From: a virus
Virus record (IMG/VR): IMGVR_UViG_3300042269_000036
Reading direction: 5' to 3' (one strand)
Length of the DNA stretch: 43,647 nt
In this document: positions 11,544 to 41,448 of the stretch, piece by piece
Layout: every line of letters begins with the position of its first letter
Position numbering within the stretch: position 1 is the stretch's first letter
Position numbers and translations under genes: made by a program
Notes under the pieces: model-generated
What the model was told of the DNA's origin: nothing
Database searches by the model: none
The model's input: only the letters and a program-made list of their open reading frames with translations

Positions 11544-11591
11544 TGGCACCACCTCCTTTCAAAGTTCCCGCTACGTGGATTCCCGTAACGG

Positions 11592-11756
11592 TCAAATGAG
11601 CTCTTCGTATCGCTCACGTTCTTCCCTTCGGAAATTCGGGTTAATACACGGTTCGGCATAGTGCAAATTACAGGCGTTGCAGACCTGCGTGCATTCTTCT
11701 CGGTCTTCGCATACGTCGCAACACTTCGCCCGCCCGTAGATTTCGCAGAAGCACAT
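11592..11756 (-). CDS. Cys-rich mini-protein (54 aa, 10 Cys; below the ORF-track cutoff)
   Basis: ATG overlaps the endolysin TGA (TGATG). MCFCEIYGRAKCCDVCEDREECTQVCNACNLHYAEPC. Confidence 0.45.
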   Translation of the reverse strand: MCFCEIYGRAKCCDVCEDREECTQVCNACNLHYAEPCINPNFRREERERYEELI

Positions 11757-12136
11757 CAGTACAACCACGCTACGTACGGGTCTTTGTCTTCGTCGCCATC
11801 CACATGGATAAAATCACGGCCGATTCCTATGCGCGTAAACCCAGCACTGATAAGTGCAAACAGCACAAAAAACCTGTGGCGGCTCCCGATAGTCGATATG
11901 TCCGCAGCGCATCCCTTTATATGCGACGAGGTTGGCTTAGAGCCGACCGCAGCGTTATGACTAGGGCAACGGTATCCGCTGGTGATTTTAAAGCGCACAC
12001 CGGCCATTTCTCGCGCCTCGTCCAGTTTGTGCAGGAAAACGCGGTCTACTTTCTCAACTCCGCAGCATCTGCACGAAAACTCGCCTGGTACGAAATGCTC
12101 AATCTCGTCCCACAGCCCTTTTTCAAACTTCGTCAT
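11756..12136 (-). CDS. Peptidase M15-type endolysin
   Basis: SGYRCPSHNAAVGSKPTSSHIKGCAADI zinc-peptidase signature. Confidence 0.8.
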   Translation of the reverse strand: MTKFEKGLWDEIEHFVPGEFSCRCCGVEKVDRVFLHKLDEAREMAGVRFKITSGYRCPSHNAAVGSKPTSSHIKGCAADISTIGSRHRFFVLFALISAGFTRIGIGRDFIHVDGDEDKDPYVAWLY

Positions 12137-12139
12137 GCG

Positions 12140-12367
12140 TTACCCTCCGATCTTGGACTTGAAACTCGCACCGACGATGAACAGAGCCAAAGCACCAAGC
12201 AGCACAAGAGCTATAAACCCGCGACGGATTGCGCTTGTTGACTCGCGGTAAATCTTGAGCAGAGTTCGGATGTCGTGGCGGTCATCTTCGGTAAATGTGC
12301 AGTCGTGGTTGATTTGTACCGCATCGGCAATAGCTTTAATGTCTTCGTCGGTAAGAGTCCGTTTCAT
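12140..12367 (-). CDS. Small protein with C-terminal TM helix, holin/anchor candidate (75 aa)
   Basis: RRGFIALVLLGALALFIVGASF; directly upstream of the endolysin. Confidence 0.5.
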   Translation of the reverse strand: MKRTLTDEDIKAIADAVQINHDCTFTEDDRHDIRTLLKIYRESTSAIRRGFIALVLLGALALFIVGASFKSKIGG

Positions 12368-12376
12368 TGGCCCACT

Positions 12377-12401
12377 AAAAAGCCCCGATTGACACCGGGG
12401 C
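12377..12401 (-). terminator. Intrinsic terminator after the tail-fibre gene
   Basis: GCCCCG-gtgtcaat-CGGGGC followed by TTTTT on the minus strand. Confidence 0.65.
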
Positions 12402-12502
12402 AGTTGTTGGTTAAATTTCGAATATGAACACGAGATATGCGATATATTTTTATCTTTGCAGGATTTACGTTTTAACGTTCCTGTTTTTGGTGCTTTTATA
12501 GA

Positions 12503-14113
12503 TTAGTCCCATAGGTATTTGTAGCCTAGGCATATAAGGCCTGCACTGAGGGCTGTGCTACTGGCCCTTAGGCGTATTTCGGAAGAGGCATCGCAAAGAA
12601 TTTCAATCTCCATTTGTGATCTTTGGGAGACCAACCCGTCACGCGTCATGCGAAGATTGTATGTTTCTGAGGTTGGTGCCGTGTCTGTTTGTCTCGTCTC
12701 TGTAACCAACCCGAAAAGGTCGCCAGAGCCAGTCGGACAGTTTAGGAGGAAAGAAACCCTTGCTCGAGAACCTGGAGGTGCGGTCAGCCTCATTGTTTCC
12801 GCATTGGTGGGAAGCGCCGTTCGCGTTCTTTCTTTTTTCGGCGTGTCCCAAACAATTCTGCCATCGCTGTCTGAAAAAAATGGTACGATATTCCCGGCCC
12901 CGTCATTAAGCACCCACCCTATCTGCCTGTATAGCGAATATGAAGACGCATCGGAAAGCAGGTTTGTTGCAGAGGCGTCAGAATCGAACCCAGCATCGAT
13001 CAAGGACAAATCTGACGAAGCGATTAAAAACACCCTGTACCATTCGGGCTCGGTGCGCGTGAAGACGGCAGTACCATCCGACACGGTGGGATTTGATGTT
13101 GCGTACCCTGACGGCTGCGAAGAACCGGAAGTTCCAGCGGTGGTGCACTCCCACCACCAAGGTGAAGAAGTTACTTTAATCAAATCGCCAAGGCTGTAAG
13201 CCGTGGAATTTGCCCTGTCTTCGATGCTCGTCTCTAGCGTCAAACCTGACGGGAACCCTCCTGCGTCTGTTCCTTGCGCCCATGCTGCGTCAATCTGTTT
13301 TGTCAAGCCGGTCGCTAAAGTTATAATCGCCTGGTTTGTGCTGTCACGGCATGCGCCCGCAGATATGTCTATATCGTGGGATGCGTCGGTCCCGTTCGCA
13401 ATATTTAATCCATAGTGTGATGCGCCAAGCATTACGCTTGCTGCGTTTAGGCTTGCAGGAGTTACAGCTGCGGCAGTGTCTTCCCCTGCTTGTGTATCCG
13501 CGTCGGTAGCGAACCTCATCACCCCTTTAAGGACGCTTGTCGCATCGGCGTCGATCTTTTCCAAAGTCACTGCGCCTTTGGCAAGTTTCTCCGTTACAAT
13601 TGAGCCGTTTTCAACTATGGTATATTGTGGCGTTTCGTTTGTCACAGCATCCCCGGTTTCGTTCCACACGAGGACTTTCCCCGCCTCGGGATGCGGCAGG
13701 TCGGTACTCGCTCCGGAAGTATCGGAATCGGGGAGCTTAAACGACACGCCGACTTGTCGGGACAGTTGTTGTATCTGCATAACGATCCGGTCAAGCTCTT
13801 GTTCCAGCGTGTCCGGCCTGAACCCGTCGCCCTGGATTAAGTCAAGCCGTTGCGTGTAATCAACGTTCCGCACGACAATCAATTTCCCGTCGCTGTATGT
13901 TGCAACCGTAGTAAGCTCACCGCCACTTTCACTGCCCGCTCCCGTTAGGGTATAATCGGTTGTGAGCGTCAGAGGATATGAAATGTCACCGGCTGCATCT
14001 TCACGATAGACCGTCAAATCTGAGTCTTGGAGGAAATAAAAAGGGACGGTATAAACCGTCCCCCCTGTGCAAACGAAAATTTGCTTGCTTGTCTCGTTGG
14101 ATAGTGCCATCAC
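12503..14113 (-). CDS. Tail fibre / tailspike (536 aa)
   Basis: Position after the internal virion genes. N-terminal YFLQDSDLTVY...DYTLTG...LIVVRNVDYTQRLDL...LEQELDRIVMQIQQL is an adaptor-type block. Confidence 0.65.
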   Translation of the reverse strand: MMALSNETSKQIFVCTGGTVYTVPFYFLQDSDLTVYREDAAGDISYPLTLTTDYTLTGAGSESGGELTTVATYSDGKLIVVRNVDYTQRLDLIQGDGFRPDTLEQELDRIVMQIQQLSRQVGVSFKLPDSDTSGASTDLPHPEAGKVLVWNETGDAVTNETPQYTIVENGSIVTEKLAKGAVTLEKIDADATSVLKGVMRFATDADTQAGEDTAAAVTPASLNAASVMLGASHYGLNIANGTDASHDIDISAGACRDSTNQAIITLATGLTKQIDAAWAQGTDAGGFPSGLTLETSIEDRANSTAYSLGDLIKVTSSPWWWECTTAGTSGSSQPSGYATSNPTVSDGTAVFTRTEPEWYRVFLIASSDLSLIDAGFDSDASATNLLSDASSYSLYRQIGWVLNDGAGNIVPFFSDSDGRIVWDTPKKERTRTALPTNAETMRLTAPPGSRARVSFLLNCPTGSGDLFGLVTETRQTDTAPTSETYNLRMTRDGLVSQRSQMEIEILCDASSEIRLRASSTALSAGLICLGYKYLWD

Positions 14114-17100
14114 TCACCTTTTCTTTTTGGCAAGAATATGTTTGCCGCCGTCCCGTTGCCTTCTTCTATCTGGTCATAACCTTTTTTCATGCGTCGGTAT
14201 ACTTGGGAGACGGGGACACCAGAAGCAAAGCTTGCGGCCTCCGCAAGCCCAAACATAACCTTTCTTGCATCGTCAGCGGTCGGGTCTGTAAGCAGATTGG
14301 CCGTGCTCCTCCCCGTTCGGCCAACAATGTTGACAAGCTCAAGTGCCGGGGTACTAACAATATCACCGTACCCGCGCCCCATGGCGTACTCAACCAAGTC
14401 GCGTACAATGGGAAGGCCCTGGACACTGCTTCCAATAACTTCTTTTGCAATCTCTTCAGGTTCTGGAGGTTCTCCAGTCCGCAACATGGCTAAAAAGATG
14501 ATGGGTACAAGGGGTTGCGCCACCCCCGTTAAAAAGTTATGGAACAAAAACTCATGCAGAGACATTTTACCGGCGCGCCATGCACCCCAAGTAGCTCTTT
14601 GCAGATTACCAAAATTGCCAGCGAAGCCAAAAAATGGAGTAAACAGCCTTCCGATAGCCGACAACCCCTCGGTAGAGCGTTGCAGGTGCGACAAGTCCAG
14701 CGCATTGCCTGACGGCTGGATTTCTTTGATCTTCGTATCGGCATAATCAACGGCTTGCTCCACGTCGCCGTCAAACTTGTCAAGCCCATCCCGATACGAC
14801 CCAAGCCATGTTGGGAGGAAGGACACGGAGTCAGCCGCGACAATCCCAGCATAGCCAACAGCCATAATATCTTCACGGCTCATGCCGAAGAATTTCTTTT
14901 CCGGCTTGAACTTCATCATCTGACGCCGGAAATCGTTATCATATGCCATATACCGTGACCGCATATATGGCGACAATTTCATGATATTGTCAAAAGCTTC
15001 TTTCGGTCCTTTGATAAATTGTCCGTACCCGCGCAGCATGGTCGGGAGTCCTACCCTGGCCTGCGCCTGGAAAAACCCGCCAAAGTTTTTCATGGCGGTA
15101 ACAATATTCCATCCCATATAAAATGCGGAACTGCGCTTCATAGCCCATTGAATGGTTTTTTCCCAGCGTGTCCCGACCATGCCGTCTGGCCTGATCATGT
15201 GCTTCAAGCTTGGCCGGATCATCTTGTAAAGCTCCGGCCCTAATACACGGATGGCTTCGGATTGATACGTCTTGTTCCTCGTTACTCGGTCAACATCCCT
15301 AACAATAGGCGCAAGATGGATATATCTCAGGGTGTCGCTCAAGTGTTCACTCAACACCGACATGGAGAGTTTTATAGGAAGCTTAGACCCGGTTGCGGTG
15401 CGCTTCTTGGTAAACCCAGACTTGGCCGAAGGGGTTTGCAGAACGGCTTCCTGTCGTGAGGACAAGTCGCTCATTTCGTCCCACATGGCTGCAAGCATAG
15501 ACAGACTCCCATCGTATCGAATGGGGAAATACCCACCGCTAATCTCAATGGGGCCGCCGTCTTTTGTTTGCACGGTAATCGGTTTTGCCTCAACTTTTTT
15601 CAGCCGGAAATGATTAAGCTTCAAATGTACCGCGTCAACTTGCGGGTAGAGATCGTTGATGCTGTCCCAAATGCCCTGCACAGCCCTCCAATCTTTTTGA
15701 GAAAGAAATTTTGTAAGCTCCTTGAACTGTTCAACGGCCATGGGTGTGCCATTAACCGTAAAACCTGCGGACATACGTTGCAGGTTGTCTGCGTTGCCCA
15801 TGTTTAGGGCTACCATGATAATATGCTCAAAGGTCCAATGTCGGTTATCCGGCTTGAAACAGTCCGGCACAGGAACGTCGGTTTTAACCTCCTTTCCGTG
15901 ATCCTTCCATGACGTAATCAGTTGTTCGAGGTGCGGTGTTATCTTGCCGCCGACCTCTTCCATGGCGGCGTAGAAATTATCCAGCCCCTTGGCGAGGGGG
16001 GTCCAAAGTTTGCGCTCGTTGACACCGGCCTTGCCCTTCTTACTGATATTGGCCCACCCGTCCATCTGCCGGAACAGCCACAGGGGGATGCGCAGACCGG
16101 CAAAATACGACTCTTTCACGTCCTGCAACTTGCGCCGCAGGCTGTCGTGCTTCGCCAGCTTCTTGCCCTTCATCTTGGCTGCTTCCTGTACGGCTTCGGC
16201 TGCAAGGTCGGCAATGGCTGTTTTCTCGTCTGAGAGTAGAGCTTTTTTGACTTCGCGACCACGCCCGACGAGGAATTTCAACAGGTCGTCCAGTTCCTGG
16301 ATTTCGCCCCATGTCATTTCCGATGTGGCGCGAGTGTCGTTGTGCAGCCAATCGGAGAATACCGGAACACCCAGGGCGGTTATGTCGTCAAGATTGCCTG
16401 TTATACCGCTTAAAAACTCGCCAAGCTGTGGCGTGCCTTCGTCAACATTGAGCCTACGTGACACCATCTGGTTGCGGAGTAAAAGCTGGTTGATCTGCTG
16501 CCGGTATTCGTAAGCAACATCGGCCTTTACCGCACGTTTCCACCGTGCTTGCGTCTTGCGATAGGCTTCGTTCGCCCGATAGTGGGCAGCGATAAGAGAT
16601 TCGTTAAGCCGCGCCTTTTCATTCAAGTCGAACGCCTTGGTCCAATCCTGCGCCTTGACGGCCTTAATGACCTGCTGACGCAACCGACGCGAAGCCACCA
16701 ACAACTTATTGACCTTGATGGCATCGCCTACCTTCTGCCCGCCTGTGGTCTGGTCTGCCCATACGCGCAAGGCTTTACGGGTCAACGCTGCCCGTCCTTG
16801 TGCTTCTTTGCGCGCCAACCATTTGCTTTCAAGCTCCATCTGCTTACGGGCTTTTGCGGTCCTTATCGCTTCTTCCGTGGTCAGTTCCGCGTCGTGCTCG
16901 ATGTCTAATTGAGCGACGCGCTGTTCTATCCACTGCGTTTTCGTCTTAGACTTGGATAACTCCTTGACGAATTCCCGCGCTGACTCGTAACCGGCTTCGA
17001 TAGCTGCGTGCTCGATGTCGAGGCCGTCTTTTTTAAACAGCCCCTTTACATTCGGAAGCTTCACATCGCCGAACAGCCGCTTAACGCTGGACCTATCAAT

Positions 17101-20100
17101 GCCGCCGCGTTCCACAAGCATGGTCATGGCCTTATAGACCGGCACTTCTTCAACTTCCGCCTTCGCCTGTTTGCGCCATTCCTTCAGTCGCTCGTCGAGT
17201 TTTGCGGTGCGCTGCTTGTCCTTCTTTTCTGCCGCTTCGGTTTCTGCACCATCGACGGCCTTTCTGTATTCCGCGATTTCTTCCGGTGTTGCACCGGCCT
17301 CTTTGAAAAACGCTTCATCAAGTGCCGCGATCTGCGCCGCCATTTCACGGGCCTGCCTTATTTCCTCGTCGGTGGCCACGAGCCTATCGAATACGCGCCT
17401 AATATCGTCGTTGATCTCCACCTGCAAGGCATCGGCGGTCTTGTAGATGTTTACCAGCCAGCGTTTGAACTGCCGGAAAGCGCCTATAAGACCTGTGGCC
17501 GGGGCTTCCCCTTCGCGTAAGTAAGCCTCAAAACCACGGGCGAATTGCTCGTGCTGTTCCGTGGTCAGCTCACCGTCTACGCCAAGCCATTCCTTGATCG
17601 CGTTCCACTCGTCAACCTGCACGCCGTACTTGTCGGCCACATATTTCAAATCGTTCAGGAACAGGTGCCCCATTTCGTGCAGAAAGGTGGATACGTTGGC
17701 CTGCTCAAACAGGGTGATAAGGTTGTTGCCTTCGCCGGAGATTAACGCGCCACGCGGGGCAGCATCGGTGCGGAAAATGGTGTCAGCTTGGTAGTTGATG
17801 CGCGGGTCGGTGGCGTCGAAGGTGCCTCGGTTGCCGGTAGCGGATTTGATCTGGGTGGGGGAGAAGACGGCATACACATCGGACGGTTGCCTTGTTTCTG
17901 TGTTCGCGGAGTCAATAACATTGCGAATTATAAGGCCGTCGTGCCCACCGGACACCGCCCGCTCAAAAGCGTCGGGATGAGTCTCGAACCAGAACTTCCC
18001 TTTTGCGTCAACCTCTAACGGGTTCTCCATTGAAAGGTAGGCCGGGACAATGTTGCTCCCTTCACTCGGAACCTCGAACCTCTCTACACGATCCCCTGCA
18101 TCCCTGCGCTTGGCAGCGAGTTGGTCTACCTTCTCCCTTGCGGCCAAGGCTTGCGCGGATTTAGGGCCATAGTCTAGGGCCGCATGCCCCCATTCCATCA
18201 AGGCAGCGTCTTCGGCGCTCCTTGCCGAGCGGAACTCATCACTCCCCATCCAGGGGGCCGCATATCCACCTGCCACTTCAGGACTGTCTGTGAAGAATGC
18301 CGCATCCGCAAAGCGCTCCCCAACCTCACCGGCACGCGCAAGGTCGAATGTTCCGAAGTCGGCGGTTGTCCCATGATAAACCACCAGCGGTTCGCCGTCC
18401 TCATCGACCACCTTGCTATCACCGAACCAGGTTTTGAACTCAGGAGTATCAATCTTTCCTGCCCCTTGGAACTGCGCCGCGTCAAGCTGATGCTCTGCCG
18501 CGAACTCGTCAAACCCCTGCCGCTGGATGGTGATGCCGAATCGTTTTAGATGTTCCGCCGCTTCAATTCCGGTCAGCTTCGCCAAGACGTTGGCGCGGGC
18601 GATGATCGGCATAATGCTGTACGAGGCGTTGTCACCCTTCACCCCTGCGTCTTCTAGCTGGGCCTTAAGGTCGGCTTCAATTTGATCTACCATGTCAGGA
18701 GAAATTAGACGCCGTTGCTCTTCATCGTACAGCTCTTTAATCCGGACGTTCGCGGCACTTTCGGCTTGCACATCGGCCTCGGCTGCGTTAACCGTGGTTT
18801 CCTCTGCGCTGATACTCAGATCGTTCTGGAATAACGTCATGGCTTGGTCGGTACCGACGCCCGCAGCAACCTTCCCGAAGTCCATTTCTACTGCGCCACC
18901 GGTTTGTAACGCCGTGATAAGCTCGGTTCGGCTTACACCATACTGCTCCGCCCATGTCGTTACTTCCTGCTGAGTCATCCCCTGTTCGTCAATGAGCGTT
19001 TCGACAAGACGGTCCGCTTGCAAATACACTTTCTCGACGCCGTTCTTTTTCCCGACACGCTCCATGAACTCCGCGAACGCTTCAGGAGACCTCTCTTTAA
19101 GACGCGAAGCTTCAACAGAAGTGGCAACGTCAATCAGCTTGTTTTTTCGTACCTCAGCTTCCGTCTTGGCTTTGTGAGCGGCTTTTATGTCTCCGGCAAG
19201 GGTAACCCCGCCGCCTACCAGCCCGGTCACGGCCATCCCCTTTCCTACCTTTTCGGCAATCCCCTGCAACTGCTCCATGGTCGCAGGGTCTTTAATGGTC
19301 TGCGTGATGCTCTGGTCCTGTAACACGCCGCCGACAATGATGTTCGTCAACTCCTGCGCCATTTCGGTCGTAACTTCGCCGGTCCACGCCATTGCGTAGT
19401 TTTTGGCGAAATCGAAAAACGCTTTGCGAATTGTCGGGTTGGAAAGCACCAAGCCCTTAACGCCGTTCGACATAACTTTTCGCAACCCAGGAATGACTTT
19501 CGCCAGAGCCGAAAAGCCGACCGTTTCTAGGGTGGCGTTGGCGACACCGACAAGCTCGGCGGCTGCGGCGGCTGTTTTGTCGTCTATCTGGTTGCCTTCG
19601 CCGTCCTGCAAGGTGCGAAACTCGCGGAACGCCTGCCCCGCTTCCACGTCGTGCGCATGCTCGAAATACCCAACGCGGAGACCTATCCCAGCACCAGCCA
19701 AGGCCCCGGCAGGGGCGGTAATCGGTGCGGCAATCTCTCCGGTAGGTGCTGCGGCCACAGCTCCGGCACCGGCACCTGTTATAGCACCGGTCAAGCCGCG
19801 TTCCATAACTTTAGGCGACTTCATCGACTCGAACATTTGGCCGACAAGCTCAGACGCTGCCGGGATGAATGATGACAGGCCCGTATCTGTGGTCTCATAA
19901 TTGCTGGCCGCGTCGAGCTTGGCGAGGTATTCAAGCTGATCGGGAGGTAAGTCTTTGCCCTGCAATATGAGCCGCCGCCGTTGTTCCCACAGCACCCCGC
20001 CCCGGTCCATTGCTTGTCCGGAAATGAATTCGCGGTATGTGTCGGTGCCCTTGACGAAACCAGGAACGAGAGACGAAGAAAGCCCCTCAATGTTCTTCAC

Positions 20101-20478
20101 GGCCTCCGCGTTTACAGCTTCCTGCTGCTGCTTTTTCAAAGCGGATGTCTTTTCCTCAATGGTGGCGAGGTTCTCAAGATCGTCCTGTGCCAGCGACATG
20201 AACCATGCATCTCTCGTCTGCCCTACAAGCACGGGGGCGCGGTCCCGCAACTTGTCGAAATCAGGCATATTTGCGGCTCTTCTCGCCACGTCTATGTTGT
20301 CTTTAACGGCGCTTTGAGATACGCCGAGCTTGGAGGACAGGTTGTAGAGTTCGGCAACCTCGTCGGGGTTGCGTTCGGCCTGTTTATACGCCTGTTGCGG
20401 GGTGTCCGGCTCCGAGACAGTTTCCCATTTTTCGTGCTGTTTTTCGGCCCATGTGCCGTCTGAGCGTAGAATTTCCAT
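14110..20478 (-). CDS. Giant polyvalent/internal virion protein (2122 aa)
   Basis: Single uninterrupted ORF in the internal-protein position of a podovirus module. Carries ART-like and HExxH modules (see sub-features) and Gly/Ala-rich hydrophobic stretches. Confidence 0.75.
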   Translation of the reverse strand: MEILRSDGTWAEKQHEKWETVSEPDTPQQAYKQAERNPDEVAELYNLSSKLGVSQSAVKDNIDVARRAANMPDFDKLRDRAPVLVGQTRDAWFMSLAQDDLENLATIEEKTSALKKQQQEAVNAEAVKNIEGLSSSLVPGFVKGTDTYREFISGQAMDRGGVLWEQRRRLILQGKDLPPDQLEYLAKLDAASNYETTDTGLSSFIPAASELVGQMFESMKSPKVMERGLTGAITGAGAGAVAAAPTGEIAAPITAPAGALAGAGIGLRVGYFEHAHDVEAGQAFREFRTLQDGEGNQIDDKTAAAAAELVGVANATLETVGFSALAKVIPGLRKVMSNGVKGLVLSNPTIRKAFFDFAKNYAMAWTGEVTTEMAQELTNIIVGGVLQDQSITQTIKDPATMEQLQGIAEKVGKGMAVTGLVGGGVTLAGDIKAAHKAKTEAEVRKNKLIDVATSVEASRLKERSPEAFAEFMERVGKKNGVEKVYLQADRLVETLIDEQGMTQQEVTTWAEQYGVSRTELITALQTGGAVEMDFGKVAAGVGTDQAMTLFQNDLSISAEETTVNAAEADVQAESAANVRIKELYDEEQRRLISPDMVDQIEADLKAQLEDAGVKGDNASYSIMPIIARANVLAKLTGIEAAEHLKRFGITIQRQGFDEFAAEHQLDAAQFQGAGKIDTPEFKTWFGDSKVVDEDGEPLVVYHGTTADFGTFDLARAGEVGERFADAAFFTDSPEVAGGYAAPWMGSDEFRSARSAEDAALMEWGHAALDYGPKSAQALAAREKVDQLAAKRRDAGDRVERFEVPSEGSNIVPAYLSMENPLEVDAKGKFWFETHPDAFERAVSGGHDGLIIRNVIDSANTETRQPSDVYAVFSPTQIKSATGNRGTFDATDPRINYQADTIFRTDAAPRGALISGEGNNLITLFEQANVSTFLHEMGHLFLNDLKYVADKYGVQVDEWNAIKEWLGVDGELTTEQHEQFARGFEAYLREGEAPATGLIGAFRQFKRWLVNIYKTADALQVEINDDIRRVFDRLVATDEEIRQAREMAAQIAALDEAFFKEAGATPEEIAEYRKAVDGAETEAAEKKDKQRTAKLDERLKEWRKQAKAEVEEVPVYKAMTMLVERGGIDRSSVKRLFGDVKLPNVKGLFKKDGLDIEHAAIEAGYESAREFVKELSKSKTKTQWIEQRVAQLDIEHDAELTTEEAIRTAKARKQMELESKWLARKEAQGRAALTRKALRVWADQTTGGQKVGDAIKVNKLLVASRRLRQQVIKAVKAQDWTKAFDLNEKARLNESLIAAHYRANEAYRKTQARWKRAVKADVAYEYRQQINQLLLRNQMVSRRLNVDEGTPQLGEFLSGITGNLDDITALGVPVFSDWLHNDTRATSEMTWGEIQELDDLLKFLVGRGREVKKALLSDEKTAIADLAAEAVQEAAKMKGKKLAKHDSLRRKLQDVKESYFAGLRIPLWLFRQMDGWANISKKGKAGVNERKLWTPLAKGLDNFYAAMEEVGGKITPHLEQLITSWKDHGKEVKTDVPVPDCFKPDNRHWTFEHIIMVALNMGNADNLQRMSAGFTVNGTPMAVEQFKELTKFLSQKDWRAVQGIWDSINDLYPQVDAVHLKLNHFRLKKVEAKPITVQTKDGGPIEISGGYFPIRYDGSLSMLAAMWDEMSDLSSRQEAVLQTPSAKSGFTKKRTATGSKLPIKLSMSVLSEHLSDTLRYIHLAPIVRDVDRVTRNKTYQSEAIRVLGPELYKMIRPSLKHMIRPDGMVGTRWEKTIQWAMKRSSAFYMGWNIVTAMKNFGGFFQAQARVGLPTMLRGYGQFIKGPKEAFDNIMKLSPYMRSRYMAYDNDFRRQMMKFKPEKKFFGMSREDIMAVGYAGIVAADSVSFLPTWLGSYRDGLDKFDGDVEQAVDYADTKIKEIQPSGNALDLSHLQRSTEGLSAIGRLFTPFFGFAGNFGNLQRATWGAWRAGKMSLHEFLFHNFLTGVAQPLVPIIFLAMLRTGEPPEPEEIAKEVIGSSVQGLPIVRDLVEYAMGRGYGDIVSTPALELVNIVGRTGRSTANLLTDPTADDARKVMFGLAEAASFASGVPVSQVYRRMKKGYDQIEEGNGTAANIFLPKRKGE
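17665..17679 (-). other. HEMGH zinc-metallopeptidase motif inside the polyvalent protein (aa 934-938)
   Basis: CAC GAA ATG GGG CAC read directly; context STFLHEMGHLFLND. Confidence 0.6.
17809..18447 (-). other. ART-like (ADP-ribosyltransferase-type) module of the polyvalent protein, aa ~678-890
   Basis: TPEFKTWFGDSKVVDEDGEPLVVYHGT..FGTFD...AAFFTDSPEVAGGYA...VPAYLSMENPLEV, pattern recalled from polyvalent-protein ART domains. Confidence 0.45.
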
Positions 20479-20487
20479 ATTTTTTTA

Positions 20488-20515
20488 TTGCCTGCGGACG
20501 CTGTGGTGGTATATT
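20488..20515 (+). promoter_or_regulatory. Extended -10 promoter for the plus-strand moron: TTGCCT-N16-(TGg)TATATT
   Basis: Read directly; 40 nt upstream of an AAAGGAGG RBS. Confidence 0.55.
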
Positions 20516-20555
20516 TTAAATACGTTTATTAGTCTTGCTTTGAAAGGAGGAAGCT

Positions 20556-20801
20556 ATGCGTTTGTTTTGCATTTTCATAGACGCTGCGATCATATTGTTG
20601 TTTTCGTCTATGTCAATTAAGTCTTTTTCTTATGGTGGCGACGACTGGATTTTTTATTGCATGTTTTCAACAATTGCAGCGCTTAACGTTTTCACACTCA
20701 TCAAGCTTCGGGCGGACGATCTTCCGATAGGCTGGATAAGGTTATATATTCGCAGAAAGGCACTTGAAGAAAAGGCTCGCATATCTAATTTGTCTAATTA
20801 G
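20556..20801 (+). CDS. Two-TM membrane protein, moron (81 aa)
   Basis: Opposite strand to all neighbours. Visibly AT-rich, with its own promoter and strong RBS. LFCIFIDAAIILLFSSMSI and WIFYCMFSTIAALNVFTLI. Confidence 0.7.
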   Translation: MRLFCIFIDAAIILLFSSMSIKSFSYGGDDWIFYCMFSTIAALNVFTLIKLRADDLPIGWIRLYIRRKALEEKARISNLSN

Positions 20802-22518
20802 CCTTTTCCCGCATCTTCTGCCCATCAACCGTCAGGTAATAGTGATAGCCTTCACGCTTACCGAGGTAAAAAACGTTCTGCTCTTCGTCCCAAATGGCGT
20901 TAGGCCACTCTCCGGCTTTGCGGATTTTATTTACTTCCCGCTGTATGTAAGTCTGCCTGTTCTCTCGCCTGTATCTCTCTGTTGTTGCTTCTGGCGTCGC
21001 CTTAATAATGGCTTGTTCTTCTTGGGAATAATGGCCAAGATCGGGGAAGCTCCCAAAATCCCACGTCGCTTTTTCTATGTCTGGCTGCGCAAGCTCCGTC
21101 CCCATCTTCACGATTTCGTTATAAGACGGATTGCGCTTGTTGACGCTGCGGAATTCTAAAACGTCCTGATACAAGACCTTCATAAACCGCGCCTTGTCCT
21201 GGTCGTCTTTGAATATATCGCGCAAGTCACCTTTAAGAGTTTCAACGGCTTTGCCAAGGCTAGGCACCTCGCGCACTTTGCCAACTTCGGTCATGAGACT
21301 CTTGGCGTCTGATGGGTCAAGTTGTCCCTGGTTCGCGGCTCGCATCAAGTCAAGCTCCTGCCAGTCGCCAGACAAGACCTTCTCATAAGCCAAAAACCAT
21401 TGGTTTAGCCGGTTTGTTTTCTCCCCGTCCTCGCCTCCTGTGGCACGCCTTAGCCAGCTTTTCACCTGTAGCTTCTGTGTAGGCTCAAGTCCTCCGTCTT
21501 TATCGATCGACGCAATGGAAACGTTCTCACCGTCATTGAAAATACGGTTGTAATATCGCTCTAGGCGGTCAAATTGCTTTTCATTGTCGATCTTGTCCTG
21601 TACCGCATGTTTGTGCGTCAGGTTGGAGATAACGGCGTTCCTGACATCATCGTCGTCAATGTCTTGTGCGAGCTCAAGCTGTGAAGCAGGCGTTCCCGCT
21701 ATGGATTCAATCCGGTCTGTTTCCTTGTCGGCCTCGAACGGCACCCGCTCCTTTTCGGCCAACTCCGTAAGCGTTACAAGGTCGGACGGTTCGAGAACCT
21801 TCTTTATTTTGTCGTCGGCAAGAATTTCTTTTGTGCGGATTGGATCATCGTGCAACAACGTGCTTAATGCCGTCTTGGTAATCGTCGCCGCCGCCACCCG
21901 CTTGCCGTTTTTTACCGCTTGTGCATTGCCTGTGGGGCCGACAATAAACTCTATCTGCTCGTTCATGTTGGCAATGGCAATGTTTATTTCCTCAACACCG
22001 CCGCCTGCCTGCAAGTCGGAAGCAAGTTGTTTTTCTGCAACATCCTGCGTGTCTTGCAGGGTCTGTCTGCGCCATTCCTGAATTTGCGTAGATTCCCAAG
22101 CCGCGAATTTGCGCCGGTATGAGTTCTCTACATATCCAAGGTGCTCAATGGCCTTGTCGCGGTATCTCTTATTGACACCGTGCTTTGATAACAGCTCGTC
22201 TTTCCACTTGCGCGAGTTGTCGTTATAGTTCTGATAGACCCCTTTAAATCCGGTCTGCTCGTTCGCAAGTGCGGCCTGTCCTTGACGTTCCTGTTTAGTC
22301 TTTTCCCACTCTTCAAGGGATCTCTGCTGGAACTCGTTTTTTGCCGCGAGGATGGCCGTGCGCTGTTCGCGTTCTTCCTTCCGTTGCGCGAACTGCATCA
22401 GGGCGTTGCCGAAGTTTTCACCAGCGTCGGCTACCGCTTGGTCTGCCGTGTTTCGTTTATACCCACCGACCGATGTCGGTAGGCTTATGCTGCTTTCGTA
22501 GGTTGGTATTCTAGGCAC
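20794..22518 (-). CDS. Internal virion protein (574 aa)
   Basis: Position between the small internal protein and the giant protein; Gln/Glu-rich helical sequence. Confidence 0.5.
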   Translation of the reverse strand: MPRIPTYESSISLPTSVGGYKRNTADQAVADAGENFGNALMQFAQRKEEREQRTAILAAKNEFQQRSLEEWEKTKQERQGQAALANEQTGFKGVYQNYNDNSRKWKDELLSKHGVNKRYRDKAIEHLGYVENSYRRKFAAWESTQIQEWRRQTLQDTQDVAEKQLASDLQAGGGVEEINIAIANMNEQIEFIVGPTGNAQAVKNGKRVAAATITKTALSTLLHDDPIRTKEILADDKIKKVLEPSDLVTLTELAEKERVPFEADKETDRIESIAGTPASQLELAQDIDDDDVRNAVISNLTHKHAVQDKIDNEKQFDRLERYYNRIFNDGENVSIASIDKDGGLEPTQKLQVKSWLRRATGGEDGEKTNRLNQWFLAYEKVLSGDWQELDLMRAANQGQLDPSDAKSLMTEVGKVREVPSLGKAVETLKGDLRDIFKDDQDKARFMKVLYQDVLEFRSVNKRNPSYNEIVKMGTELAQPDIEKATWDFGSFPDLGHYSQEEQAIIKATPEATTERYRRENRQTYIQREVNKIRKAGEWPNAIWDEEQNVFYLGKREGYHYYLTVDGQKMREKAN

Positions 22519-22520
22519 GA

Positions 22521-22958
22521 TTACGCCCCCTGCTGATAGGCATTATAGGACAGCACAGAAGACCCGACCTTCCCGACCGTTGAAACAACCGCTCCGGTAG
22601 CCTTGCTGCTGTAGTTCCGCGCCGCTACCTTGGCCTTGTTCGCCTGCGCCTCGCCTCCAACCATAATGGCCGTCATGTCTTCTGCCGATTCCTGCAAAGT
22701 CGAAGCAAACACGTCCTGCACACTGCCAGACATAAGAGAAACGCCAGCCTTAGCGTATCCTACACGCTGCTTGCCCATCAGCTTTTGCGTGCGCTCAAAT
22801 TGCCGTCTTGCCTCAACCGCCGCTTTCTTGCGCTGGTACTCGGCTTCGTTCTCGGCTACTTTTTCGTTGAATTTGGCCGTTTGATAAGAGGTGTAGCCGC
22901 CGTAAGCCGCAGCTGCTGCGGTTACAACCAATGCTGCCGCTGCAAGTCCCATTACCAA
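22521..22958 (-). CDS. Small internal virion protein with N-terminal TM (145 aa)
   Basis: MVMGLAAAALVVTAAAAAYGG then coiled coil; podovirus gp14-like position. Confidence 0.45.
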   Translation of the reverse strand: MVMGLAAAALVVTAAAAAYGGYTSYQTAKFNEKVAENEAEYQRKKAAVEARRQFERTQKLMGKQRVGYAKAGVSLMSGSVQDVFASTLQESAEDMTAIMVGGEAQANKAKVAARNYSSKATGAVVSTVGKVGSSVLSYNAYQQGA

Positions 22959-39201: not shown

Positions 39202-41448
39202 TTATGCAATAAATGACATTTGCTCTGCGGTGTTGGTGTCGGCCTCAACGAGGTTTTTAACGGCCTGACTGAAATAACTGTCTTTCAATTCAACCCCGAC
39301 GAATTTTCTACCCATTTTCAATGACTGGTAGCCTTCTGACCCGATCCCGGCAAATGGCGAGAAAACCGTGTCGCCCTCATTGGTCCACAGTTGCAAGGAC
39401 CGTTCAATAACGTCGAGTTGCAACGGGCAAATGTGCCGTTCGTCTTTATCGTCGCGAGCGGAAGTACGCTGCAATGTGTTGGACGGGTTAATGTCCATCC
39501 AGACCGGGGATGCGTACCTTTGCCACACGTCGATTGACAAATTTTTCGTTTGTTTAAACGTCGACTGATCGCCCGCGAAATACTTAAGTTCACCGCACAC
39601 AGGTTCTGGGTTTTCCCCCGGTTTGCGCATGACCACCAGATAATCTGGTATGCCCTGACGCGACATGCAACTATCTTTTTTAAGTTGTTTGTGGAGTAAT
39701 CCAAGTGCCTTTGTGCGTTGCATGGCCGTTACCGGGTCCTTCCAAATAACCACTTCGCTGTGATATATCCAGCCAGCGTCCTGAAATGTTTTGATGAGTT
39801 GCCCGCGAAAATCCTTAATGCCGATAACCCCGTCGCGCGCTTTACTGGTCGGAAGATTCATACAATGAAACGCGCAGAGCCTCCCCGGCTTAGTAATACG
39901 CAACAGTTCCGGCACCAAGAAACTGAAATGGTCAGCAAATTCCTGATCCGTTTTACAGTTCCCCATGTCGCGGTCGCTGGCCGAGTAGGTATAAAGCGAT
40001 GCGAACGGCGGGGAAAAGATCGAAAAATGCACGCTGTCGTCGGGGATTTCCCGCGTTACGTCAACGCAATCGCCATGGTATAAGGTCCAATTTTCGGATG
40101 ATTCAACCCCACGCGCATAGTCAACAGTCTGACGCGTTGTGCCGTGGATCTCATCGGTGTTAATACCCGCCATATATTTCACCATTTCTGACGCCATCAA
40201 CTCCGCGTCAGCCTCTTTGCGTTCAATGTTTTTCACAACCGCCCCTTCCGTTTCTGCGGTCACGACATGGACTGTGACCTTGTTTTTCTGCCCGAACCGC
40301 CAGCATCGCCTAACCGCCTGATAAAATTGCTCATAGGAATCGGACAGTCCGAGAAAAATCATAGTGTCGCAATGTTGCCAATTCATGCCAAACCCGGCGA
40401 TGCTTGGTTTGGTGACAAGCGTTTTAACACTGCCATCCGAAAAGCCGAGCATGGCAGATTCTTTGTGCTCGTTTTTATCAGATCCTTTCACTTCTACCGC
40501 GCCGTCAATTAAATGTTTTGCTGCGGCAGATTCATCGTTGAGGTTGCACCATACTAGGCACGGTCCATTCGTGTTGTTGGCAATTTCTGCTGCGAGCTTG
40601 GCGCGTTTGCCCACAGTGGCTTTGCGCTCTTGCTGTCGCTCCTGCAACGTAAGCGCCTCGACCGGGAACAAAAACCCATCGGGAGCCTCATTCTTTTTGA
40701 CAACATGGTGTTTAATCTCAAGCGGCGGCAAAATAAATCCTCCGTCGTCATACCCAAGATCGGACGGTTTGCGAATCATGACTGCCCAGGACGCCACCCA
40801 TCGCCAGAAATCATTTTGAGCATGCCCTTTGATTCGCCATTTCTGCGTTTCTCCACCGTCATGCACAAAAAACATGCTTAACATTTCCACACGGCTCATC
40901 ACACCCAAAAACTCTGCATGGTTGCCTAGTTCCATGTGATCGTTCGGGGCGGGCGTTGCGGTACACGCCAGACGAAAGGCCGTGTTTTTGAACGCATCTA
41001 TAATCTCATTTCTTATTTTCCCGGTATAGCTCTTTAAAATTGATGATTCATCAAGGACGACACCAGCAAAATGGTCTGCATTAAATTTGCCAAGCATTTC
41101 ATAATTGGTTATTGTGATTCCTGATGAAACTTGTTCTTGGCTGCGGCAATACTTCACGTCAATGCCAAACTTCGCGCCCTCCCTAACGGTTTGCATTGAC
41201 ACGGCCAGCGGAGCCAGGATTAACACATCGCCGCCCGTATACTCATGAACATGCTTCCCCCACTCTAGCTGTATGGCTGTTTTGCCCATTCCACAATCGG
41301 CAAACAGCGCTGCCCTCCCGCGCTTTAACGCCCAACGAACAATGTCTTTCTGGAATTCGAACAGTGCCGGGTTTATTCCAACGTCTGCGCGTATTCCAGT
41401 TGCCGCGTCCGCCACGGCTTTTTTCTGCAAAAAGTCCTCGTATCGCAT
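39202..41448 (-). CDS. Fusion of SNF2/DEAD-type helicase and beta-class N6A/N4C DNA methyltransferase (748 aa)
   Basis: DCGMGKT (Walker A), VVLDESS (DExx), helicase C block QAVRRCWRFGQ. Then FSPPFASLY (motif IV) precedes FSPFAGIGSEG (motif I). Confidence 0.85.
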   Translation of the reverse strand: MRYEDFLQKKAVADAATGIRADVGINPALFEFQKDIVRWALKRGRAALFADCGMGKTAIQLEWGKHVHEYTGGDVLILAPLAVSMQTVREGAKFGIDVKYCRSQEQVSSGITITNYEMLGKFNADHFAGVVLDESSILKSYTGKIRNEIIDAFKNTAFRLACTATPAPNDHMELGNHAEFLGVMSRVEMLSMFFVHDGGETQKWRIKGHAQNDFWRWVASWAVMIRKPSDLGYDDGGFILPPLEIKHHVVKKNEAPDGFLFPVEALTLQERQQERKATVGKRAKLAAEIANNTNGPCLVWCNLNDESAAAKHLIDGAVEVKGSDKNEHKESAMLGFSDGSVKTLVTKPSIAGFGMNWQHCDTMIFLGLSDSYEQFYQAVRRCWRFGQKNKVTVHVVTAETEGAVVKNIERKEADAELMASEMVKYMAGINTDEIHGTTRQTVDYARGVESSENWTLYHGDCVDVTREIPDDSVHFSIFSPPFASLYTYSASDRDMGNCKTDQEFADHFSFLVPELLRITKPGRLCAFHCMNLPTSKARDGVIGIKDFRGQLIKTFQDAGWIYHSEVVIWKDPVTAMQRTKALGLLHKQLKKDSCMSRQGIPDYLVVMRKPGENPEPVCGELKYFAGDQSTFKQTKNLSIDVWQRYASPVWMDINPSNTLQRTSARDDKDERHICPLQLDVIERSLQLWTNEGDTVFSPFAGIGSEGYQSLKMGRKFVGVELKDSYFSQAVKNLVEADTNTAEQMSFIA

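Follow-up and report, generated by a model that had tools for sequence, protein, structure and literature searches.

What does the largest gene of a short-tailed phage encode when it lies among virion genes and also carries enzyme-like modules? This question is raised by the viral DNA IMG/VR IMGVR_UViG_3300042269_000036 (43,647 nucleotides (nt); this whole stretch is called the window below). ORF calling and translation revealed an intact open reading frame (ORF) on its minus strand, running from ATG to stop (14110..20478) and encoding 2122 amino acids (aa), by far the largest ORF in the window. An initial annotation had described its product as a polyvalent virion protein at the position of podovirus ejected internal proteins, with an ADP-ribosyltransferase (ART)-like block and a zinc-metallopeptidase motif. 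We conclude, with a probability of roughly 0.75, that the gene encodes a large internal virion (ejection) protein of the Bbp10 type from an epsilon15/BPP-1-like podophage, equivalent to T7 gp16 (IVP-D; IVP, internal virion protein), built as a polyvalent protein. A slot at aa 660-901 holds an ART with an intact His-Tyr-Asp (H-Y-D) site; the protein would be packed and ejected, the ART would act in the cytoplasm and a zincin-like domain would cut the chain. The polyvalent character first proposed is borne out by LPD22, ART-PolyVal and HExxH domains on one chain, encoded among tail tubular, internal virion and tail-fibre genes. Coordinates of all features are given in Table 1.

The ADP-ribosyltransferase domain

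Pfam was run on the whole protein and on six separate segments of it. Two domains of the 2122-aa protein were significant, LPD22 and ART-PolyVal, and the separate segments added no domain to these. ART-PolyVal (PF18760) scored 86.3 bits when aa 660-900 were searched and 78.3 bits for the complete sequence (cut-off 31.2), in agreement with the ART-like block initially placed at aa ~678-890 (nt 17809..18447 corresponds to aa 678-890, as checked by script). The three motifs named for this block map by script to aa 697-704 (PLVVYHGT), aa 728-740 (FFTDSPEVAGGYA) and aa 814-823 (YLSMENPLEV), all of them where the initial annotation had placed them.

An alignment of 51 homologous ART domains showed a conserved polar core consisting of H702 (98%), G703 (100%), Y739 (98%) and D847-G848 (100%). 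For the placement of these residues an AlphaFold model of aa 660-1160 (501 aa) was used, in which Y739 lies in a short helix just past the strand aa 727-730 (the second strand), with moderate local confidence. ARTs of polyvalent proteins have been described as having an H-Y-D site with the D in strand 5 and as related to PARP and the diphtheria/cholix group (Iyer 2017, PMC5512222). The score, the strand-1 His, the strand-2-associated Tyr and the strand-5 Asp of ART-PolyVal were all found in the present protein. Judged from its sequence, the domain is a bona fide ART-PolyVal of the Tox-ART-HYD2-related clade with an intact H702-Y739-D847 site, and it is predicted to be catalytic.

E818 in YLSMENPLEV was also considered as the catalytic acid and rejected; it is not conserved among the 51 ART domains, whereas D847 is. 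The initial annotation had allowed that the block might lack the catalytic triad on alignment. The site proved to be intact, and one of the three residues named for it was wrong: the third motif does not contribute the invariant acid, which is D847.

A search of the PDB with the ART domain profile gave the ARTs of cholix toxin, exotoxin A and diphtheria toxin as best, weak matches (E 0.011-0.3), with the His and Tyr motifs aligned. These matches bear on the target of the enzyme. Instead of a host protein, the ART might ADP-ribosylate nucleic acid, or consume or reshape NAD+-derived molecules, for example blunting an NAD-dependent host defence. The ART superfamily has DNA- and RNA-modifying members and NADases (PMC9503650), and the target is not identifiable from the sequence. 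An unusual specificity could also be set by a helical hairpin insert of ~60 residues (aa ~747-799), which is confidently modelled between the two stretches matching Pfam ART-PolyVal. We consider such a target quite improbable, since the clade has been grouped with the protein-modifying diphtheria/cholix/PARP-type ARTs (Iyer 2017, PMC5512222) and the best PDB profile matches belong to the same protein-modifying toxin group.

Directly before the first ART strand (YHGT) lies a leader, FKxWFGDSKVVD (window 18394-18438, aa 681-695), which holds this position in 35 related loci. It is kept better than most of the ART; in the relative P0002 it is 100% identical, with only 35% identity in the ART core.

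An exchangeable cassette in a conserved frame

Comparison with close relatives revealed sharp borders around the ART. In blastn, L097, the contig encoding the 2043-aa relative P0003, matched window positions 12842-17775 with 96.2% and 18500-20531 with 94.0% identity, with no match between them; its slot contains 487 unrelated nt (L097 11980-12466). The breakpoints 17776 and 18499 were identical against two further relatives, three in all (L097, L001 and G001). At the protein level P0003 showed 99.5% identity over aa 271-660, 98.5% over aa 1031-1500 and 99.8% over aa 1501-2122, with an unrelated 162-aa insert replacing aa 661-901. This 162-aa cassette, at aa ~661-822 of P0003 and P0006, gave no Pfam match. 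Five close relatives display four different slot inserts: the ART described here, a second ART with 35% identity to it (75-79% in the frame), an ART-like block below the Pfam threshold and the 162-aa block. Bbp10 of BPP-1 and gp32 of the Cobetia phage Carin1 carry nuclease-like cargo in the same frame, PBECR1 and PBECR5, respectively. Among 149 relatives carrying both domains, the ART adjoins the HExxH domain in 66% of the ART-to-HExxH transitions.

By these sequence comparisons, the ART is dispensable, exchangeable cargo and the HExxH domain is part of the conserved frame. This frame comprises LPD22 and the N-terminal region (aa 1-660), the HExxH...E domain (aa 905-1020), the long helical region and the C-terminal module with its two hydrophobic segments. 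The initial view that neither module is needed for a channel thus applies to the ART, in whose place near-identical relatives have unrelated inserts. Every relative, Bbp10 included, has the HExxH domain, and it therefore cannot be called 'not needed' for the ejection function. The N-terminal 650 aa and C-terminal ~1100 aa, previously left unassigned, can also be accounted for in part. LPD22 (aa 28-120) is likewise N-terminal in Bbp10 and in Carin1 gp32, and a match to PHROG 9880, the Bbp10 (IVP-D) module, covers the C-terminal ~1240 aa (aa 878-2109, E 1.9e-180).

The motif FLHEMGHLF (HEMGH at nt 17665..17679), which had been read as that of a zinc metallopeptidase, lies at aa 932-940, as checked by script, and the candidate third zinc ligand E977 follows 39 residues past H938. 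A chance occurrence of HExxH was considered and rejected; 0.03 are expected from the protein composition, yet the motif is invariant across homologues.

The HExxH domain was modelled with AlphaFold as aa 900-1022 folded alone, from 52 sequences, two GenBank phage rows being left out. The model shows, in this order, a beta-hairpin, the HExxH helix, a short helix, the E977 helix and a final helix (four helices), which is the order that a minimal gluzincin would be expected to show. None of the Pfam models matched the HExxH domain and no metallopeptidase family reached the cut-off; sub-threshold matches among its members were to SprT-like (in 5), DUF4344 (in 4) and M3, M78 and Tox-MPTase4 (in 3 each). 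MPTase-PolyVal, which we take to be PF18818, is in none of the listed Pfam results for the 2122-aa protein or the HExxH members. A structure search of BFVD with the model detected homologues and weak IrrE-like matches (probabilities 0.66-0.77), and nothing else. When PDB sequences were searched with the HExxH profile, the top match was the Spartan SprT metalloprotease (E 0.025), in an alignment that spans the strand and the HExxH helix. We regard the domain as zincin-like, with membership among the peptidases plausible but unproven. Of the initial assignment, the motif and its position stand, and HExxH...E is strictly conserved (81/81 and 54/54 homologues); a peptidase fold is not demonstrated, given the best E value of 0.42 in the PDB Foldseek search and zincin profile matches that stay below threshold.

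The same results could be read differently: HExxH...E would bind metal for structure, or serve as a hinge in the ejection protein, without being catalytic, and the ART would remain tethered to the channel protein. The model lacks a significant fold match to any peptidase, no Pfam peptidase family was found at threshold, and full-length transfer is described for proteins with such domains, the N4 virion RNA polymerase and those of the ArdC type (Iyer 2017, PMC5512222). This explanation appears highly doubtful to us: E935 of HExxH would be the general base and not a ligand, and a purely structural site would not need it in 81/81 sequences. H976, E984 and Y986, near the candidate third ligand, are also 94-98% conserved.

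A second explanation accepts catalysis and assigns it to another substrate. Here the HExxH domain would not process its own chain; it would cut peptidoglycan cross-links for passage of the ejectosome through the wall, or degrade a host protein as an effector. Effector roles are a listed alternative for these peptidases (Iyer 2017, PMC5512222), and a wall-degrading role was proposed for the gp47 metallopeptidase by the phi24B authors (bioRxiv 10.64898/2026.04.10.717836). The internal virion proteins examined in the window include no recognisable cell-wall hydrolase, and neither a lysozyme nor a transglycosylase domain was detected in the 574-aa protein at the position of Bbp11. In Bbp10, however, the HExxH domain is kept although the neighbour Bbp11 has a transglycosylase. 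The domain always lies at the junction of cargo and frame, and in some relatives it is repeated or split around the cargo, which suits processing better than wall digestion. It is also very small (~115 aa), with no visible substrate-binding extension in the model. We therefore regard the wall or effector role as unlikely and retain self-processing as the expected activity.

The split domains were found in the relatives P0092, P0073, P0014, P0105, P0108 and P0089, where cargo lies between the hairpin/HExxH helix and the Glu helix. P0092 and P0073 have a single ART as this cargo, and P0014 has five or more copies of the ART. Since cargo splits the HExxH domain in these relatives, the corresponding loop at about aa 966-972 of the present protein represents a second cargo slot. 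The family itself is large: of 1.84 billion cluster representatives, 12,011 matched at E<=0.001, most of them within proteins of 2000-3000 aa. Tentatively, the site just upstream of the HExxH domain in Bbp10-type ejection proteins might be a dedicated recombination slot, in which effector cassettes are swapped between near-identical phages like polymorphic-toxin tips. The HExxH family (~12,000 cluster representatives) might then be a cis-acting protease that releases any cargo inside the host, with the second slot within the protease domain, between helix 2 and the Glu helix. We put this forward as a possibility, though not a likely one.

Probable ejection-protein identity and genomic setting

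In a tblastn search against deposited phages, aa 888-2059 matched BPP-1 bbp10 (E 9e-62). Cobetia Carin1 gp32 and proteins of Caulobacter, Pseudomonas AF, Xanthomonas CP2 and Vibrio phages were matched by this same C-terminal part of ~1200 aa. The order bbp13-bbp12-bbp11-bbp10-bbp9 of BPP-1 corresponds to the gene order in the window, and the position typical of podovirus ejected internal proteins, as first noted, is confirmed by it. Bbp10 is the IVP-D (T7 gp16) homologue of the epsilon15 subgroup (Table 2 of Hardies 2016, PMC4819975), and internal virion proteins variably host cytoplasm-destined domains (Hardies 2016, PMC4819975). As is characteristic of IVP-D, the present gene lies past small internal virion proteins and an IVP-C-like gene and before the tail fibre, and its product is homologous to Bbp10. 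No direct similarity to gp16 was detected, so that the link to gp16 is drawn through Bbp10, synteny and the literature. The predicted membrane-inserting segments near the C-terminus (aa 1871-1889 and 1978-1999) fit a gp16-type trait; C-terminal transmembrane helices have been reported for all gp16-like proteins (PMC8954989). Closer to the N-terminus, the Gly/Ala-rich stretch (aa 225-270) gave faint Gly-zipper and P22 gp7 Pfam matches, both sub-threshold, and may have a membrane role.

By analogy with T7 gp16 and phi24B gp47, the capsid core would house the 2122-aa protein until it leaves through the tail, either before the DNA or together with it. As in T7 gp16, the inner membrane would take up the C-terminal module, which would form part of the DNA conduit. 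The ART would reach the cytoplasm and, as T4 Alt suggests, transfer ADP-ribose from NAD+ to at least one host macromolecule in the early phase of infection. The adjoining zincin-like domain would cut the polypeptide, in the capsid or after entry, and the N-terminal and cargo part would be freed from the channel part; cutting of the chain at such sites has been proposed for polyvalent-protein peptidases (Iyer 2017, PMC5512222). The injected protein might in this way disarm host defences, as the initial annotation had suggested.

Several observations count against this picture. For this protein and for its close relatives alike, each step from packaging and ejection to processing is inferred, as are the activity and target of the ART. 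Cleavage is not a given, since the virion RNA polymerase of N4 also has such a peptidase domain and is packaged without being processed (Iyer 2017, PMC5512222). The ART core is modelled moderately; near strands 1-2 its predicted local distance difference test (pLDDT) score is about 59-70. A Foldseek search with the 501-aa model returned helical noise and neither an ART nor a zincin, probably because ART strands 1-2 are poorly modelled. In the HExxH model two strands are seen, compared with the N-terminal helix, three-stranded sheet and two C-terminal helices of the canonical zincin core. Foldseek of this model against the PDB gave a best E value of 0.42, with a zincin in none of the top 50 matches. 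Finally, the profiles of the C-terminal module (alignment A5, 40 relatives) and of the N-terminal region (alignment A6) detected no solved structure among PDB sequences, T7 gp16 included. A phmmer search of PDB sequences with the whole protein likewise found nothing and did not return T7 gp16. The T7 protein is present in the PDB, e.g. as 7EYB (PMC8954989).

The gene is part of a T7-like virion module on the same strand, which begins in the order terminase, portal, protease, major capsid protein and tail tubular A and B. After tail tubular A/B, the minus strand encodes two small internal virion proteins, the 574-aa protein, the 2122-aa protein and the tail fibre. For the 574-aa protein (20794..22518), searches of PHROG, Pfam and the PDB gave no match. 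The remaining genes of the window include Erf, exonuclease, replication-initiator, DnaB and methyltransferase genes. A 748-aa protein at 39202-41448 combines helicase (phrog_16, phrog_62) and DNA methyltransferase matches, and a second methyltransferase lies at 1590-2981.

Directly upstream of the 2122-aa gene is a gap of 315 nt (20479-20793). It holds a sigma-70-like promoter match (11/12) at 20616-20589 on the strand of the gene and, on the other strand, a hydrophobic ORF of 81 aa (20556-20801). Positions 20532-20800 are without a DNA match in L097, which is otherwise 94-97% identical; L097 has a 77-aa opposite-strand ORF there. On the other side of the gene, the C-terminal end of the tail-fibre gene could not be aligned between the window and L097. 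The interval between tail-fibre and lysis genes measures 3.5 kb in L097 (L097 17401-20945) compared with 1.3 kb in the window (11562-12841), and in L097 an IS605-type TnpB gene (OrfB_IS605, Cas12f-like TNB) lies between these genes.

Table 1. Positions of the features of the 2122-aa protein and of neighbouring genes in the window; pTM, predicted template modelling score.
Feature	Position (nt)	Strand	Basis
Whole gene, 2122 aa; probable Bbp10-type giant internal virion (ejection) protein and polyvalent protein	14110..20478	-	ORF, translation, tblastn, synteny with T7 and BPP-1 virion modules
LPD22, aa 28-120	20119..20397	-	Pfam PF18834, 64 bits (cut-off 28.6)
Gly/Ala-rich hydrophobic stretch, aa 225-270	19669..19806	-	Hydropathy peak at aa 249-267
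Exchangeable cargo cassette with ART, aa 661-901, 724 nt	17776..18499	-	blastn against L097, L001 and G001 breaks at exactly these bases
ART-PolyVal domain with leader FKxWFGDSKVVD, aa 681-897	17788..18438	-	Pfam PF18760
H702, predicted NAD-binding His, end of strand 1	18373..18375	-	His in 50/51 aligned ART domains; invariant in alignment A4; follows model strand aa 699-701
Y739, Tyr of the H-Y-D site	18262..18264	-	Tyr in 50/51 aligned domains; aligns with the cholix toxin ART Tyr in the profile match
D847, invariant acid, start of strand 5, in GHDGLII	17938..17940	-	Asp in 51/51 aligned domains, then invariant Gly; before model strand aa 848-855
Conserved HExxH domain, aa 905-1020, minimal zincin-like fold	17419..17766	-	AlphaFold model, pLDDT 89.7, pTM 0.81; in Bbp10 and Carin1 gp32
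HEMGH (H934, E935, H938)	17665..17679	-	Invariant in 81/81 and 54/54 homologues; in model helix aa 929-951
E977, candidate third zinc ligand	17548..17550	-	Invariant in 81/81 and 54/54 homologues; third helix, aa 973-989
Long helical middle region, aa 1024-1500	15979..17409	-	Modelled as long helices (model of aa 660-1160); within the PHROG 9880 match
Conserved C-terminal module, aa 1501-2122, common to Bbp10-type proteins	14113..15978	-	PHROG 9880; alignment A5
Hydrophobic, transmembrane-like segment, aa 1871-1889	14812..14868	-	Hydropathy scan
Hydrophobic, transmembrane-like segment, aa 1978-1999	14482..14547	-	Hydropathy scan, highest peak 1.71
Small internal virion protein (neighbour)	22521..22958	-	phrog_418, E 6e-17
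574-aa protein in IVP-C (Bbp11) position (neighbour)	20794..22518	-	Synteny
Tail fibre with T7-type N-terminal adaptor (neighbour)	12503..14113	-	phrog_1640 and other tail-fibre families on aa 2-128

Prevalence and comparison with known systems

One search with the ART-HExxH region gave matches to more than 4400 large proteins, and ART relatives are encoded by 513 or more stretches in IMG/VR and by at least 559 in species-representative bacterial genomes. With the N-terminal 665 aa as query, no close relatives were found in bacterial genomes. Proteins of this kind are already published (Iyer 2017, PMC5512222; Hardies 2016, PMC4819975) and very common, and current understanding is unchanged by the present case. 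The concept dates from 2016-2017 and thousands of relatives exist; what the locus adds is a clean, well-bounded example of short-tailed phages loading host-modifying enzymes onto a DNA-ejection protein. Its practical value lies in a near-isogenic pair with and without the ART. Such natural pairs, with a scaffold 98.5-99.8% identical and either the ART or the unrelated 162-aa insert, offer a ready experiment on the role of the injected ART, its hosts and defence systems. The protein further draws attention to an HExxH domain family of very large size that is not covered by the domain databases searched.

The closest known proteins are BPP-1 Bbp10 (NP_958679), Carin1 gp32 and the homologues of Pseudomonas AF, Xanthomonas CP2 and Caulobacter phages, which are encoded at the same position, between an IVP-C-like gene and the tail fibre. 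In this group the frame is shared: LPD22 at the N-terminus, a slot for cargo, the HExxH...E domain and a C-terminal module of ~1200 aa with 23-30% identity. The cargo differs: Bbp10 carries the RNase-like domain PBECR1 and Carin1 gp32 carries PBECR5, whereas an ART is found here, and the frame is only about 26% identical.

The polyvalent proteins in which ART-PolyVal was described (Iyer, Burroughs, Anand, de Souza, Aravind 2017, PMC5512222) likewise combine unrelated enzymatic domains in one giant polypeptide encoded by a late virion gene. They share with the present protein an LPD domain, the H-Y-D (Tox-ART-HYD2-related) ART and, beside the cargo, a zincin-like HExxH domain. The ART-PolyVal prototype, however, is fused to an N4-type virion RNA polymerase, whereas the carrier here is a Bbp10/IVP-D-type ejection protein.

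The gene for T7 gp16 (IVP-D), an ejection protein of the inner membrane and cytoplasm, is likewise the largest in its internal-virion-protein operon, which it closes immediately ahead of the tail fibre. The T7 protein is also largely helical, with hydrophobic segments near its C-terminus and an enzymatic add-on, a transglycosylase. The add-on of gp16 is a wall hydrolase, in contrast to the predicted cytoplasm-directed ART of the present protein, and no direct sequence or profile similarity between the two was found.

T4 Alt follows the same functional model, being a capsid-packaged, injected ART that modifies host proteins at the start of infection. It differs in belonging to the R-S-E clade (Alt/VIP2) and in being a separate myovirus head protein, not a part of an ejection protein. 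Another giant polyvalent protein with LPD and metallopeptidase domains is gp47 of the Stx podophage phi24B (2811 aa), a proposed ejection protein that is abundant in virions by proteomics (bioRxiv 10.64898/2026.04.10.717836). In contrast to the protein described here, gp47 has a different domain set (LPD5, LPD1, LPD38, MuF-C) with no ART, and it belongs to the F116/933W structural group.

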